DNA from: Octopus vulgaris
Lineage: Eukaryota
Direction of reading: 5' to 3'
NCBI GenBank assembly: GCA_951406725.2
Contig: OX597815.1
Location: forward strand, 187,612,001 to 187,676,000
Length of the DNA stretch: 64,000 nucleotides
In this document: positions 2,535-61,572 of the stretch, in pieces
Layout: each line of letters opens with the position of its first letter
Numbering within the stretch: position 1 is the first letter of the stretch
Program-made: the position numbers and the translations under genes
Notes under the pieces: generated by a model
The model's database searches: none
What the model saw: the letters and a program-made list of their open reading frames with translations, nothing else
What the model was told of the DNA's origin: nothing

Positions 2535-2582
2535 GCCTTACAGCTGTTTCAGGGATATGAAGGATATCACATCATCAGAGAC
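2535..2582 (-). ncRNA. Minimal type I hammerhead ribozyme motif (Penelope-like terminal fragment)
   Basis: Minus strand: GTCT-CTGATGA-T-GTGATAT-CCTTC-ATATCCC-T-GAAA-C-AGCT-G-TA-AGGC. Canonical core, stem I GTCT/AGGC, stem II with one internal mismatch, palindromic stem III loop. Confidence 0.75.
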
Positions 2583-3894
2583 AATATGAGAGAGTTAAAT
2601 AGAAGGAAATAGTAGAGTTCAATATAAGAAGTTATTTTGGAAAGGGAGAAATATAAGAAGTATAAAGAGAACTATGAGAATAAAAATAAATGTTGGATGT
2701 TACAGTTGCAGTTCCATTATTCAGAGTTACATATATATATATAAATATAAGATCCAAGGATCGAGGTGTAGTAAGAAAGTTAGTTTCAAGTTATCTGGAT
2801 CTTATTGATTCCATTTCTTAACTCTTATATATATATATACAATTTATAAACATGGTAAAAGAAAAAATGATTTCTATACCAATATGCTGAGAATAGACTT
2901 TAAATCATCAATCACCACATTACAATATACATTCACTATAAATACATGTCGTGCTGAAATCGAGGAAGGCAAGCCAAGAGAATTTTTTTTTTAATTAATT
3001 ATCTTTATATTGAATAGTAAATATATATATGTATATATATATATATATATGTGTGTGTGTGTAGATATATATACATGTATGTATAGTAATGTGTTGCATG
3101 AGATAATGGTCAACTGTTCAGTAATTGGTACAAGCACAGTACCATTACTGATTGGTTTGTTGGTTTCCGATGCTTAACCTAAATTCTTCTATTAGAGTTG
3201 ATTTACACTGCAATGGACCAACCTAGGCTGACTTGTTTACCATACTCTGTATTAAGACAAAGATAATTCTGCATGATAAAACAGCATCAACTACAAAATT
3301 CTTTACATTGAAAATTCTTAATATTTATAAAAGGTTTTATTTACTGTATTTGCCTGCTACATTTAATATAGAGAATTACATGATTCTTTTGCATAGCTTC
3401 TACAATTTTAACATCATTAGAATTTGTTTGCTGCTATCCACTTTATATCTTAAAAGGTTGCATCTGATGGTTATAGTAAGCAAAACGCAGAGCTATGGCT
3501 GTGATATCTGATATGCTAAGTGCTCAGTGTTGGATATGACTCTTATCAACATTTAGCTTCATTATACTGTAATTTATCTCAATTGCTTTACTTCTTGTAC
3601 ATCTGGTTATAAAATAAATAACAAAAGCTATATCCTTTTCGATTATACATTTTAAAAAGGAAGCTGAAAATCTGTCTTAAATTAAGTACCATTCTATCAG
3701 GCAACCACTAGTCCTTCCTCTTTATGAAGGGGAGAGAGATGAATGGTGTATGCCTAAATTCTCACAGGGCCAAAAATATTAATTTTCTAATTACTTTCAA
3801 CCAACCTTTGATATAGTTAAGTTACTAATATACCAGTCTTTGAAATTCTAAATTCTTTCCTCTTTATTAGATGAAAGTGTTTATCCAATTTTAC

Positions 3895-3939
3895 CATCAT
3901 TTCTAAAATTGGCTATCACAATTCTTTCTTCAGTATCTT
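3895..3939 (-). CDS. Candidate 45-nt internal exon (phase 1/1; xDTEERIVIANFRNDx)
   Basis: Minus-strand acceptor TTTCCTCTATTTTCAG, donor G|GTAAAA, open frame. A competing + strand exon candidate overlaps it (3934-3970). Confidence 0.25.
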
Positions 3940-4719
3940 CTGAAAATAGAGGAAATATCAAAAAGTAAAAGTGAGCTTCTATTGTTGCTAGGATTCCCTT
4001 TGAATGAATTACACTCTGCACATTAGTCAGCCTACACTGGCAGCCAATAAAAGCATGTTATACACAAGGATAATACTTTAACTCCTTCTTACTTGATTGA
4101 TCTTTTTCCATTCATTTCTCCTAATGTATTTCAATCTTTACCCAATACCAGTTAGCAACATTCATGTGGGAAAACCACAAAGTAAATTATGGCTCCAAAA
4201 TATGGAATGCTCTGTTAGCAGCCATTAGGAAAATCTCCTAAGTTCAAAAAGGAATTGAAGAACTGTCCTTTGTTTTAAATCAAATTATTATTTTCTGTAT
4301 CAAAGATAATTCACTTTTACTACCTGATGTAATTGAATGTACTAAGACACCACTGTTAAAAACATACATAGTTTATTGTCATTGTGTCAAATATTCAAAG
4401 TACACCATATTGGTGTCTCCAATTATGTCTATGAAGGAAAGTACTGTTGTCCTGATCAGCAGCTGGAAACATCCACTTTCAAATCAATAATCCTCTGTGA
4501 CTGCTCCATATTTTTTCCTTTTTTTTTTCTTTTTTCTTTTAAATATCCAAAATAATAATTTCCTAGAAACTTAATCATTAACATTTGACACTTTTCTAAG
4601 GTAACTTTTCTTCAGGTTTTGTTGTTAGTAAAAATGTTGTTTTGTAGTAACCCATGCTAGCATGGAGAACGGACGCTAAATGATGATGATGATGATGATG
4701 CCTATGGTTTATTCTACAA

Positions 4720-5273
4720 CAGAGGTTCTCAACCTATTTTGACCCTTGGAGTCACAAATGCCCCCCGAAAATATTTTTATTTTTCAATATACTACTTATT
4801 TTGATATCAGCAGATAAATGATTAAAAAATAAAGGATGTTGTTTTACATATGCACTTGTATACATTCTGGAGTATAGATGTATAAATTGAAATGCAAAAA
4901 AAATGAAATAATGTAAAGTTTGGTGAAGAGTGTGCTTTGGTACAAGAGAGCCCTTTTGCTCCAAAATGCACCCCACCCCCGAGGGGGGGACATATAGCCC
5001 CCGTTGAGAACCTTTGTTATACAATAACACATTCATTAATTTCGTTTTTGGGTTTGGTTTGCAAGATTCTTTATGTGAGTTTGTGTGTTGAAAATAAAAA
5101 TAAGAAATAAGTGGAAATTTTATTGGTGAATGTGTTAAATTATAAGGTACAAAAAGAAAATGACTCTCCCAAGACATAACAGAACATTCATTAATGTTTT
5201 CCATTTTATCCAATACTTCAAAAACAGAATTTTTTAAAGAATTGCATTGCAACCCTTAGGTTGAGAAACATTG
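4720..5273. mobile_element. hAT-like MITE
   Basis: Imperfect TIRs CAGAGGTTCTCAACCT ... AGGTTGAGAAACATTG; TSD not evident. Confidence 0.55.
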
Positions 5274-5281
5274 GCCTGTAT

Positions 5282-59270: not shown

Positions 59271-60128
59271 TTAATGTCTGCTCAATTCAAATCAACCTTG
59301 CTACTTTGTGTGGAAATGTTTGTATATGAACCAAACAAATCGTATTGAAAATATATCTTGTGAAGCAGAAAATACGATCAAGGATATAGAAATATTCCTG
59401 ACAAGAAGTAAATATCCTGTATTTGAACATGGGGCCAAAAGACATGGTTGGGAGAAAGGAACGAGAAGGCATGCTGCTTCAGGATACCCCACTAAAGTGA
59501 ATCTGCCTGCACTGAGGTGACCAGATACACTAAGAACTGAATATGCATCTCTTCTTGGATGTCATCTCTAAGATGCTACTTGTCCAAAAGTCAAAGAAAC
59601 TTTTAACCCTTGCAGATTATACACACTGGCAAATTGCCCATCTAGAAATGCTGACAAATATTTTTGTTCTTTCACAGTATAGTCAATCAAACACAAAGAA
59701 TTTTAACAAATTACACCATAGGTAGCACTATCTAGCCATTAAATATATTTATTAGGAAGTCCATAAATATGGTAGTCTTGATTGGTAAAAGACATTTTGA
59801 CAGCAACCTAAGTACAATAGTTATTGCTAACAAGACCATTGAGAGAAACAATAATTTATGTATTAAAGAAGAATGTTTATTAGTTGTCTGCAACCAAAGC
59901 TCAAGAATTGTTATGAACTTCTCAGTTACTAACACGTTATAAGTGGTATTTTGAATATTCCAGCTCACACATCGTTGCCTTACTCTGTATACAGTACAGA
60001 AATGGTTGTAGTGTTGTTTATAGTTTATTTGTCATTTCAAATTTTGTCACTTCATAATATTGACTTGTTAAAGCCAAAATATGGATTGCATTTCATACAT
60101 TTATTGCTCTCCAAATTTGTATTGCTAT

Positions 60129-60222
60129 TATCATCTTCATCATCATCATCATCATCATCATCATCATCATCATTATTATTATTATTATTATTATTATTAT
60201 TATTATTATTATTATTATTATT
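60129..60222. repeat. (CAT)n(TAT)n microsatellite
   Basis: Direct inspection. Confidence 0.98.
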
Positions 60223-60447
60223 AAGGCAGCAAGCTGGCAGAATCATTAGCACTCTGGACGAAATGCTTAGCAGTATTTTGCCTGTCGCTAGTTTCTGAGT
60301 TCAAATTCTGCTGAGGTTGACTTTGCCTTTCATCCTTTCAGGGTTGATAAATTAAGTACCAGCTGAGTACTGGGGTCGATGTAATCGACTCTCCCCCTCT
60401 CCCAAATTTTAGGCCTTGTGTTTATAGTAGAAAGGATTATTATTATT
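60223..60447 (+). mobile_element. SINE family B with alternative (ATT)n tail
   Basis: Head and central domain as in 27436; tail GGCCTTGTG..TATAGTAGAAAGGATTATT. Confidence 0.9.
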
Positions 60448-60991
60448 GAGTGAGAGAGCAATGCATGCCATCAAAGTGACACTGGGGTAAAATATACAAA
60501 GCCCAGTATACCCATCATGACTACCTGTCTGATAAGGGCATACCAGGTACATGCTTCACAACCATATGTGCGTGACATGGTGATCTTATATCAAGATAAA
60601 CAGCACATGACCTTGCAGGTGGGGCCCAGTTAGAATTTTCTTCTGGTCAAGTAGCCCATCCCACTCAAAATGTCCCTGAATAAGGATTGTTTAAGGATGT
60701 TGAACGAAACACCCATGTTTCCGAAAGTGAATTATCCAAACCCCAAAGAATTCCTCTCAACACATGGCTGCGATGCTCCCCCACTACTTCTGCTTGTGAT
60801 CAGAGATGCACATATCGTCAGCCACTAAGGGACATGCTCAACTGGTTACGGTCAAACAACTCGCAAGCAAATCTGTGGTATTGAGCAGAATATTTGCTGT
60901 AGCCCATCTTTTATACCAAGACTGAACAATGTACATGATAACACTTCCACTCAAGATAAAAGAACCATGTGAGCCAGTGCATTAGGGCATT
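60448..60991. mobile_element. Unclassified GC-richer interspersed element between (ATT)n tracts
   Basis: Sharp composition change, flanked on both sides by (ATT)n. Confidence 0.45.
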
Positions 60992-61520
60992 GATTATTAT
61001 TATTATTATTATTATTATCTTCTATCATTTGCTTGTTTCAGTCATTAGACTGCAGCCATGCTGGGGTACTGCCTTGAAGAATTTTTAGTGAAGTGAATTG
61101 ACCCTAGTACTTACTTTTTTTCTTTTAGCCTGGTACTTATTCTATCAGTCTCTTTTGGTTATGGGGATGTAAACACATCAACACTAGTTGTCAAGCAGTG
61201 TTGGGGGAGAAACACACACACACACACACACACACATGTATACAGAGATTCTTGGTTCAGTTGTGAAGGGAACTTTTTAACTTCAACTGGCAGAATCATT
61301 AGCATGCTGGACGAAATACTTAGCATTATTTTGCCTGACACTGCATTCTGAGTTCAAATTCTACTGAGATCAACTTTGCTTTCATCCTTTCGGGGACATC
61401 ATCATCACCATCATAAACTTCAATACTCATACATATCTTACATCTATTTTCTTTCCTCCACCTCACTCTCTATTTTGTATCACATCTAAACTAACTATGA
61501 CTTAACTTTCCTCTCACACC

Positions 61521-61572
61521 GTCTCCGATGAAGGGATATTATTAATTAATATCCTAGAAACAGCTGTAAGAC
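61521..61572 (+). ncRNA. Minimal hammerhead ribozyme motif, U4C variant; same family as 2535-2582
   Basis: GTCT-CCGATGA-A-GGGATATTA-TTAAT-TAATATCCT-A-GAAA-C-AGCT-G-TA-AGAC; downstream TATAAATGT..GCCTT.G..TCTCATT is shared with the 2.5-kb copy. Confidence 0.7.

Follow-up and report, generated by a model that had tools for sequence, protein, structure and literature searches.

Six minimal hammerhead-like motifs in five dispersed repeat families within 64 kb of the Octopus vulgaris genome

Introduction

Dimeric hammerheads of Penelope-like elements (PLEs) are reportedly the subject of work by Lünse et al. in 2017. Minimal hammerheads (min-HHRs) of metazoan PLEs comprise thousands of single motifs, in 4–8 families per genome (Cervera & De la Peña 2014, PMC4209133); the molluscs Lottia and Crassostrea are included in the alignment of that study. 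A second class, the retrozymes, has been proposed to originate from PLE pseudo-LTRs (PMC7229834; Li et al. 2026, 10.64898/2026.07.22.740005). Among PLEs, the Naiad and Hydra clades are found in cephalopods and other invertebrates: Hydra-1_oBim has a 3' hammerhead, while some Naiads retain only the core or half of it (Craig et al. 2021, PMC8557442). Inverted copies, tails of 30–40 bp and a bias towards microsatellites are described for PLEs in the same paper. With regard to core variants, a natural change at position 6 (A6C) confers low activity, with kobs <0.1 per min (Perreault et al. 2011, PMC3088659).

Literature searches on octopus and cephalopod hammerheads returned no study of the families described here, and four sequence words matched no paper; the O. 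vulgaris repeat library (PMC13282606) may include these families.

Results

Six motifs and their families

A preliminary description of the window – the whole 64-kb stretch of DNA analysed – had claimed six hammerhead-like motifs from about five families. All six are present at the claimed sites and on the claimed strands (Table 1), each running from helix I through a CUGANGA-like core, helix II and GAAA to a short, self-complementary helix III, then UH and the closing strand of helix I. Cutting is predicted after 2539, 40129 and 41055 on the minus strand and after 11327, 40883 and 61568 on the plus strand. A log-odds scan was built from the published min-HHR description, its score being devised after the motifs had already been seen, and ranks them first to sixth in the window. 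At a threshold of at least 12 bits there are 6 matches, compared to a mean of 0.68 and a maximum of 3 in 40 dinucleotide shuffles; at 16 bits or more the figures are 5 matches against a mean of 0.10 and a maximum of 1. Motif 4 alone falls in the null range (15 of the 40 shuffle maxima are higher). A strict descriptor without bulges matches, of the six, motifs 3, 4 and 5 alone, and one additional site: four matches against a shuffle mean of 1.2, a number reached in 1 of 40 shuffles.

Table 1. Positions of repeat units, motifs and the adjoining open stretch in the window
Feature	Position	Strand	Score (bits)	Remarks
Family A unit, copy 1	2465..2730	-		~265 bp, between (TA)n run and TA/CA run; boundaries by eye
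Motif 1	2535..2582	-	22.5	core CUGAUGA/GAAA/UA intact; 4-bp helix I; helix III palindrome CAGCUG; cut predicted after 2539
Family B unit	11237..11410	+		~170 bp, immediately following (TAA)10 at 11207-11236; 3' limit set by eye
Motif 2	11287..11331	+	17.1	CUGAUGA, extra A, 5-bp helix II; G12 -> A (AAAA); broken helix III
Family C unit	40065..40345	-		~280 bp; 3' tail repeated inverted at 5' end
Motif 3	40126..40161	-	20.0	core UUGAAAA (U3-A8 variant); 3-bp helix I; 4-bp helix II; helix III CUGG
Family D unit	40817..40975	+		~160 bp; of very high abundance; (TA)n at the end, as in other copies
Motif 4	40852..40887	+	12.6	core CUGUUGA (A6 -> U, family-wide); 22.5 bits with majority letters
Family E unit	41007..41244	-		238 bp; its tail meets that of family D on common TA-rich run 40974-41006
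Motif 5	41051..41154	-	16.8	U3 here, C3 in majority; long helix II; 6-nt self-complementary helix III; 24.1 bits with majority letters
Family A unit, copy 2	61405..61645	+		~240 bp; boundaries by eye
Motif 6	61521..61572	+	23.7	U4 -> C; A.A at helix II base; palindromic helix III CAGCUG
53-codon open stretch with PLGLND (61751)	61643..61801	+		directly behind family A copy 2

Five families were found, since only motifs 1 and 6 are alike (73% match over 131 nt). These two form family A; they lie 59 kb apart on opposite strands, are the sole two copies of one family in the window, and share their helix sequences, with no compensatory double change demonstrated between them. Evidence that families are multi-copy comes from the two window copies for A, and from contigs for D and E. 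Helix II of motif 1 carries U.U and U.C mismatches; U10.1-U11.1 occurs in natural hammerheads and is tolerated (PMC3088659). In the homodimer computed for motif 6, the two copies are joined by helices I and III and each forms its own helix II, which is the topology of a double hammerhead.

Searches with general models were negative. Rfam gave no hammerhead over motifs 2–6 at E<=10 and none among the matches listed for the whole window (150 of 204), and single copies do not fold significantly better than their own shuffles (z −1.5 to +1.8). As a control, both helices were found in 0 of 113 viral-contig loci bearing the bare core words, and two further generic hammerhead patterns gave 0 and 0 loci in viral contigs. 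Searches for copies outside the window gave 0 matches in metagenome contigs, viral contigs and plasmids.

Comparison with hammerheads of Penelope-like elements

The motifs share with the PLE min-HHRs (PMC4209133) the type I order, a helix I of 3–5 bp, an extra nucleotide after A9, a palindromic helix III and the U3-A8 variant, as well as the occurrence of several families per genome and of mostly single, dispersed motifs; a U-rich 5' flank is a further common feature. In the window, helix I has 3–4 contiguous bp across motifs, the extra nucleotide follows A9 in motifs 2 and 4, and G10.1-C11.1 is present in motif 2, the motif 4 majority and motif 5. The palindrome at 15.2-16.2/loop 3 reads CAGCUG (motifs 1 and 6), CUGG (3), CG (majority of 4) or CAAUUG/CGAUUG (5), and is broken in copy 2. 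Motifs 1 and 3, and motif 5 in its family-majority form, have all the core boxes intact (C/U3-UGA-N-G/A8-A, GAAA, UH, in type I order); window copies 2, 5 and 6 have one core deviation each, and motif 2 is predicted to be dead. The U3-A8 combination is also known as a covariation among natural core variants (PMC3088659). Helix II has 4–8 bp in the window motifs, except that in family E it is longer (by inference up to ~17 bp, vs 7–8 in PMC4209133) and bears a long loop 2.

The units, described previously as 150–350 bp long and abutting microsatellites, are indeed of such size (~160–280 bp). Contact with a microsatellite holds for motifs 1, 2, 4 and 5, but is looser for the other two: a gap of ~30 bp separates motif 3 from its microsatellite, and the neighbor of motif 6 is a short TA/CA run, the long array beginning 160 bp farther on. 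The inverted arms of family C (40077-40109 and 40305-40337) are 33 nt long and 97% alike, with TA runs outside them. Motif 3, in the same unit, is the only copy to pass the strict descriptor without a core deviation, and its core is that of S. mansoni(4) in the supplement of PMC4209133. Arms of this kind, together with the (TA)n ends of other family D copies, are Penelope-type traits: the Naiad and Hydra clades have the same (TA)n insertion bias, inverted ends and 30–40 bp tails (PMC8557442). The Hydra-1_oBim hammerhead, however, differs in sequence from all six motifs, and none of five short motif words matched the supplement of that paper.

A further difference from the PLE min-HHRs of PMC4209133 is that no PLE open reading frame – neither RT nor GIY-YIG – was tied to any family within the window. 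The frames considered were 158 low-repeat stop-free stretches of at least 55 aa, from which 15 chosen pieces were scanned against Pfam with no informative match. The open stretch directly behind family A copy 2 could possibly be a remnant of a Penelope-type GIY-YIG C-terminus, judging from the hexapeptide PLGLND, which occurs once in the window, on the strand of motif 6 and 180 nt behind it. In the PLE supplement of PMC8557442, PLGLND appears 9 times; the 6 occurrences listed are at the endonuclease C-terminus of protein sequences. The pattern was picked after being seen: P.GLN[DE] arose in 5 of 200 shuffles and the looser P.GLN in 101 of 200. Homolog searches with this stretch were empty, apart from one phmmer match to a repetitive non-PLE sequence, and atlas matches were under 0.9. 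Another open stretch, 10795-11204(-) beside motif 2, had no homolog and no informative Pfam match. It was not used as Penelope linkage; judged by eye from a motif, it is presumably closer to a LINE endonuclease remnant.

Families D and E: window copies and contig majority

Majority letters for families D and E were obtained from public contigs aligned to the window (three DNA contig sets). Family D is the most abundant family tested, with its ~160 bp covered some four orders of magnitude more deeply than by a single contig. U stands at core position 6 in >90% of contig depth: at position 40859 no alternative letter reaches 10% among the rows listed, and the two T>A rows each of X1 and X3 fall at other positions. 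Judged by sequence, family D is hammerhead-like, of the min-HHR kind, in all other parts. For motif 4 a second register, whose core would be UUGAAGA at 40859, was discarded after visual inspection because it separates helices I and II from the core.

Three G.U pairs in the window copy of motif 4 are G-C/C-G in the family majority, and the resulting gain in score (Table 1) was matched by 0 of 2000 random controls with three transitions; the corresponding gain for motif 5 was matched by 19 of 2000 random controls. In both motifs the majority changes restore pairs, and are one-sided. Because the majority letters of these multi-copy families fit the fold better, the window copies of motifs 4 and 5 are decayed relative to their families. 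The three changes that restore pairs in motif 4 are CpG reversions without exception, and thus show decay rather than selection on the fold.

Pieces of family E span 41007-41244 repeatedly in the contigs, and other copies of both families continue upstream into sequence absent here. Opposite-strand joints were seen in family E (4 among the 15 of 26 rows listed), one contig per run each; as a Penelope-type trait they are weak at 80% likeness.

Discussion

The most probable account, and one that we favor with some confidence, is that the six motifs are minimal type I hammerheads in five dispersed repeat families, representing solo 3' ends (pseudo-LTR pieces) left by Penelope-like retroelements whose insertion at microsatellites was followed by decay. 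It starts from direct observations – the motifs, the family structure, the adjacency to microsatellites and the fact that copies 4 and 5 have decayed relative to their families – and takes its mechanism from the literature. In the parent element, the two hammerheads of a tandem transcript would pair through the palindromic helix III; the paired hammerheads would excise the unit, which would then be reverse-transcribed; and 5'-truncated insertion would leave a tail with one motif. A lone motif without a partner would not cut, and the window copies are therefore predicted to be inert passengers. Family D was likely amplified from a master in which core position 6 was already U, suggesting that its spread did not require efficient cutting.

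The suggestion that the genome carries a diverse set of Penelope-derived ribozymes stands in part. Several families, including a very abundant one, carry minimal type I hammerheads of the dimer type, but the linkage to RT and GIY-YIG frames is wanting, with one hexapeptide as a hint and blank homolog searches. Neither the density nor the diversity of families is new: both are already in PMC4209133.

Some families, above all D, could instead be discrete non-autonomous elements with their own masters, SINE-like and monomeric, moved in trans by Penelope enzymes: we regard this as possible, although somewhat doubtful. Family D is short, ends in (TA)n and has very deep contig coverage, and pieces of family E recur over the same interval. 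Moreover, non-autonomous PLE derivatives are known, namely MRC1 (PMC8557442) and retrozymes derived from pLTRs (10.64898/2026.07.22.740005). On the 5' side of family D, loose ends agree only 0.39-0.49 before 40817-40827, which is compatible with a discrete short element; the upstream continuation of other D and E copies, on the other hand, fits ragged 5' truncation too. Neither a tRNA part nor an internal promoter was recognized (ARAGORN, 0 genes), and end-to-start joints are absent among the 15 of 26 joint rows listed. This last result, together with the (TA)n ends of family D copies and with 0 of 47 TRF rows overlapping a motif, also bears on the label 'retrozyme-like', which in its published sense has to be given up. 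Retrozymes resemble the window units in being short and non-coding (150–350 bp) with a type I hammerhead, and monomers of them occur; they are arranged in tandem, bear canonical hammerheads and give circular RNAs, whereas the window units are single and their motifs minimal (PMC7229834; 10.64898/2026.07.22.740005). A canonical type I hammerhead has a 6-bp helix I, loop 1-loop 2 contacts and an Rfam match, in contrast to the short helix I seen here and the lack of an Rfam match for motifs 2–6.

That the folds ride on non-Penelope repeats, or that the weaker ones arose by chance, seems very unlikely. The family C unit, with its inverted arms and TA runs outside, might be taken for a MITE (33–40 bp terminal inverted repeats flanked by TA), no PLE frame was linked to the families in the window, and the window copy of motif 4 scores no higher than many shuffles. 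Against this, the PLE min-HHR signature is common to five unrelated families, the majority forms of D and E fit the fold better, and the inverted arm of family C is the unit's own 3' tail, as described for PLE insertions (PMC8557442).

It is least credible, indeed highly improbable, that some copies are active ribozymes cutting host pre-mRNA or giving small circular RNAs: motifs 1 and 3 do have an intact core, and family D is covered by one run that was guessed to be RNA and may be DNA, but single min-HHRs are inert in vitro and multimers cleave only at low levels (PMC4209133), 1 of 9 Xenopus dimers cleaved (10.64898/2026.07.22.740005), full mutagenesis found low activity when the CUGA turn was altered (PMC9901934), motif 2 is without G12, motif 6 without U4 and motif 4 without A6, and the same-family pair is distant and in opposite orientation. 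Cutting of host transcripts, proposed previously, is thus unsupported – most copies are lesioned – and in the window no host exon was identified and no evidence of an effect on host genes was found.

With the solo 3' ends of PLEs as the preferred account, five families are added to a known class, and the A6U detail of family D may be new. U6 is absent in the 56 rows of Fig. S3 of PMC4209133, an absence that is partly by design as the descriptor used there demanded A6, and the core-variant section of PMC3088659 makes no mention of A6U fixed in a very abundant genomic family. Literature searches found no relevant work on a hammerhead with CUGUUGA; A6U was met for twister only, and not in PMC11014351. 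The change is predicted to weaken cutting. We consider it unlikely that family D is a short Penelope-dependent element, with order of ten thousand copies, a fixed CUGUUGA core and perfect helices, that still cleaves as a dimer; were it so, it would be a natural core variant missed by CUGANGA descriptors, and genomic hammerhead counts in such animals would be much too low. An abundant family with a fixed core change offers a direct test of whether cutting by its hammerheads is essential to the spread of a Penelope element. If family D is dead, then amplification would proceed without need of cleavage, in line with the hammerhead-less Naiads (PMC8557442); if it cuts, search descriptors would need widening.

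Detection of six hammerhead motifs

The six hammerhead-like motifs reported in the preliminary description are all present where it placed them. Motif 3 matches a strict descriptor with zero core deviation, and such matches were found in 0 of 40 shuffles. Allowing one deviation returned motifs 3, 4 and 5 plus one extra site, that is, four matches compared to a shuffle mean of 1.2 (1 of 40 shuffles attained four). Motifs 1, 2 and 6 fail this descriptor because of mismatches or bulges. A log-odds scan tolerating both, whose score was based on the published description yet drawn up with the motifs already seen, placed the six at ranks 1-6 within the window: six sites score at least 12 bits versus 0.68 per shuffle (maximum 3), and five at least 16 bits versus 0.10 per shuffle (40 shuffles each). 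Motif 4 by itself (12.6 bits) lies inside the null range. Single-strand folding of the motifs was no better than for shuffles, and Rfam reported no hammerhead over motifs 2-6 (E<=10) or among the 150 of 204 whole-window matches listed.

Among 423 self-BLAST rows the sole motif-to-motif match joins motifs 1 and 6 (73% over 131 nt). The motifs therefore fall into five families (A to E), in agreement with the earlier estimate of about five.

Coordinates of hammerhead motifs, their units and other features of the window
Feature	Position (strand)	Remarks
Motif 1, family A	2535-2582 (-)	unit 2465-2730 (-), boundaries by eye; copy 1
Motif 2, family B	11287-11331 (+)	unit 11237-11410 (+), 3' boundary by eye
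Motif 3, family C	40126-40161 (-)	unit 40065-40345 (-)
Motif 4, family D	40852-40887 (+)	unit 40817-40975 (+)
Motif 5, family E	41051-41154 (-)	unit 41007-41244 (-)
Motif 6, family A	61521-61572 (+)	unit 61405-61645 (+), boundaries by eye; copy 2
Short units between (TA)n runs	2745-2830 (-); 62881-63010	similar AT-rich end; the first immediately upstream of family A copy 1, short inverted repeat inside
65-nt hairpin	11138-11202 (+)	very stable (z = -6.9; 0/200 shuffles); immediately precedes (TAA)10 run and family B unit
29-nt piece	40037-40065 (-)	behind family C tail, adjoins (TA)16; by eye like family D 5' and 3' ends fused without the middle
TA-rich run	40974-41006	shared; families D and E meet tail to tail
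Compound microsatellite	61800-63046	1.2 kb; TA/TATG units, 24-28 bp periodicity
LINE-remnant-like decayed coding pieces	10795-11204 (-); 18541-18951 (-); 21860-22243 (+); 51638-53300 (-)	by look of sequence
SINE-like families	5354-5753	more than 15 other window places
238-bp repeat	57823-58391; 57159-57532; 1-205; 30171-30396	2.4-copy tandem and dispersed copies

Majority sequences of families D and E

Contigs from three DNA sets and one guessed RNA set were compared, at 80% likeness, to 40783-41365 (motifs 4 and 5); 8062, 8563, 7834 and 1658 aligned. Summed depth in the DNA sets is ~1.3 million over motif 4 and 1,400-8,600 in bins over motif 5, versus ~30-70 for single contigs. Depth is not copy number; roughly, copies would number in the region of ten thousand for family D and a hundred for family E.

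The majority letter in motif 4 is C at 40867 (68-87%), 40875 (88-94%) and 40880 (58-72%). With these letters three G.U pairs, located in helix II and at 15.2-16.2, become G-C and raise the score from 12.6 to 22.5 bits (matched by 0 of 2000 random controls). The family E majority restores C3 at 41150 (76-80%, DNA sets) and at 41061 (74-75%) gives helix III a different self-complementary hexamer; the motif 5 score rises from 16.8 to 24.1 bits (19 of 2000 random controls). Partial rows at 41072, 41131 and 41137-41139 suggest that helix II of family E may extend up to ~17 bp. CpG is restored by all three motif 4 changes and by 8 of 23 majority changes overall, evidence of decay from a better-folding master and not of selection.

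No alternative letter occurs at core position 6 (40859) among the 40 of 85 rows listed; CUGUUGA, with A6 replaced by U, is thus the normal family D core. Both T>A rows of each of contig sets X1 and X3 lie elsewhere, so A6 is below 10% at 40859 there; X11 and X15 have one T>A row each beyond the rows listed, presumably not at the high-depth 40859. It seems improbable that family D represents an active A6U core variant overlooked by descriptors. Full mutagenesis is reported to give low activity upon changes in the CUGA turn (PMC9901934), and a natural A6C hammerhead to cut slowly (PMC3088659).

Other D copies terminate in (TA)n, with low agreement in their upstream continuation, and family E pieces cover 41007-41244. 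Strand changes appear in 4 of 15 joint rows listed (of 26), each from one contig per run and weak at 80% likeness; no joint of unit end to start is among the rows listed. The D/E junction belongs to a 1.4-kb stretch that contains three hammerhead units along with two SINE-like repeats.

Relation to Penelope-like elements

The reading of these units as Penelope derivatives is partly supported, by structure and architecture but not by a coding link, and the retrozyme class does not fit. Compared to the minimal type I hammerheads of Penelope-like elements (PLEs), the motifs pass structural tests, save position 6 in family D. The units do sit at microsatellites, as noted, and motif 3 is flanked by a 33-nt inverted copy of its own unit's 3' tail; both features are described for PLEs (PMC8557442), which the unit architecture fits.

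The sole coding hint of PLE kinship is PLGLND, within a 53-codon stretch of the same strand that directly follows family A copy 2. The PLE supplement to PMC8557442 contains 9 occurrences of PLGLND (the 6 places listed are all in endonuclease C-termini); P.GLN[DE], a pattern chosen after the fact, appears in 5 of 200 shuffles. Homolog searches with this stretch were blank or spurious, and that upstream of motif 2 gave no homolog and no Pfam match; neither stretch showed the anticipated linkage to a Penelope RT and GIY-YIG ORF.

Origin and activity

The six motifs are probably decayed solo PLE tails. Minimal hammerheads of metazoan PLEs are reported to reside in pseudo-LTRs and, in genomes, to be mostly single, which is ascribed to truncated PLEs; they form several families, with counts of ~2,000 (S. 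mansoni), ~4,000 (coelacanth) and ~9,000 (X. tropicalis) (PMC4209133). Each unit would then be a truncated tail of a parent PLE in which two motifs pair via helix III and the tandem transcript is processed. A homodimer computed for motif 6 adopts this topology, and cleavage is described as absent for single minimal hammerheads and weak for dimers and trimers (PMC4209133). The window motifs lack a partner (59 kb separates the two family A copies, which lie on opposite strands), and lesions are present in most of them: motif 2 lacks G12, motif 6 U4 and motif 4 A6. Motifs 1 and 3, with their intact cores, are the sole plausible candidates for a residual trans activity; that the motifs cut host RNA, as once suggested, is very unlikely.

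A less probable alternative, though one to be taken seriously, is that the units are discrete non-autonomous elements mobilised by PLE enzymes. An origin of retrozymes from PLE pseudo-LTRs has been proposed in a preprint (10.64898/2026.07.22.740005). The label 'retrozyme-like' does not hold, however: non-LTR retrozymes, as far as the sources cited define them, are tandem units with a canonical hammerhead (PMC7229834; 10.64898/2026.07.22.740005), a definition that excludes the window motifs. Carriers other than PLEs, or chance, are unlikely. No locus of these families turned up in metagenome contigs, viral contigs or plasmids. In a control, both helices occurred in 0 of 113 viral loci carrying bare core words.

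Among cephalopods, 235 Rfam hammerhead matches are reported for giant squid (PMC6962438), a hammerhead for Hydra-1_oBim (PMC8557442) and 31 recently active Penelope-like families for O. vulgaris (PMC13282606). The literature searched, which took in neither subscription papers nor Repbase, Dfam or the O. vulgaris repeat library on Zenodo, describes neither families A-E nor the CUGUUGA core.

Setting of the window

The window is AT-rich (GC 34%, zero N), with self-matching repeats making up 26% (30% including microsatellites), and its repeat landscape resembles octopus DNA. Its long ORFs either read through microsatellites or, by eye, resemble LINE remnants. A Pfam scan of 15 chosen pieces gave no informative match, nor any for the four LINE-like pieces scanned; the LINE-like pieces resemble CR1/L2 and RTE types. 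The false miRNA matches in the Rfam scan are due to the compound microsatellite. The 65-nt hairpin, with no miRNA match in Rfam, may represent the end of a repeat, a MITE or a precursor of miRNA-like type. In the log-odds scan the 238-bp repeat scores nowhere above background. SINE-like copies are abundant and often split, left half from right half, with CA/TA microsatellite between.
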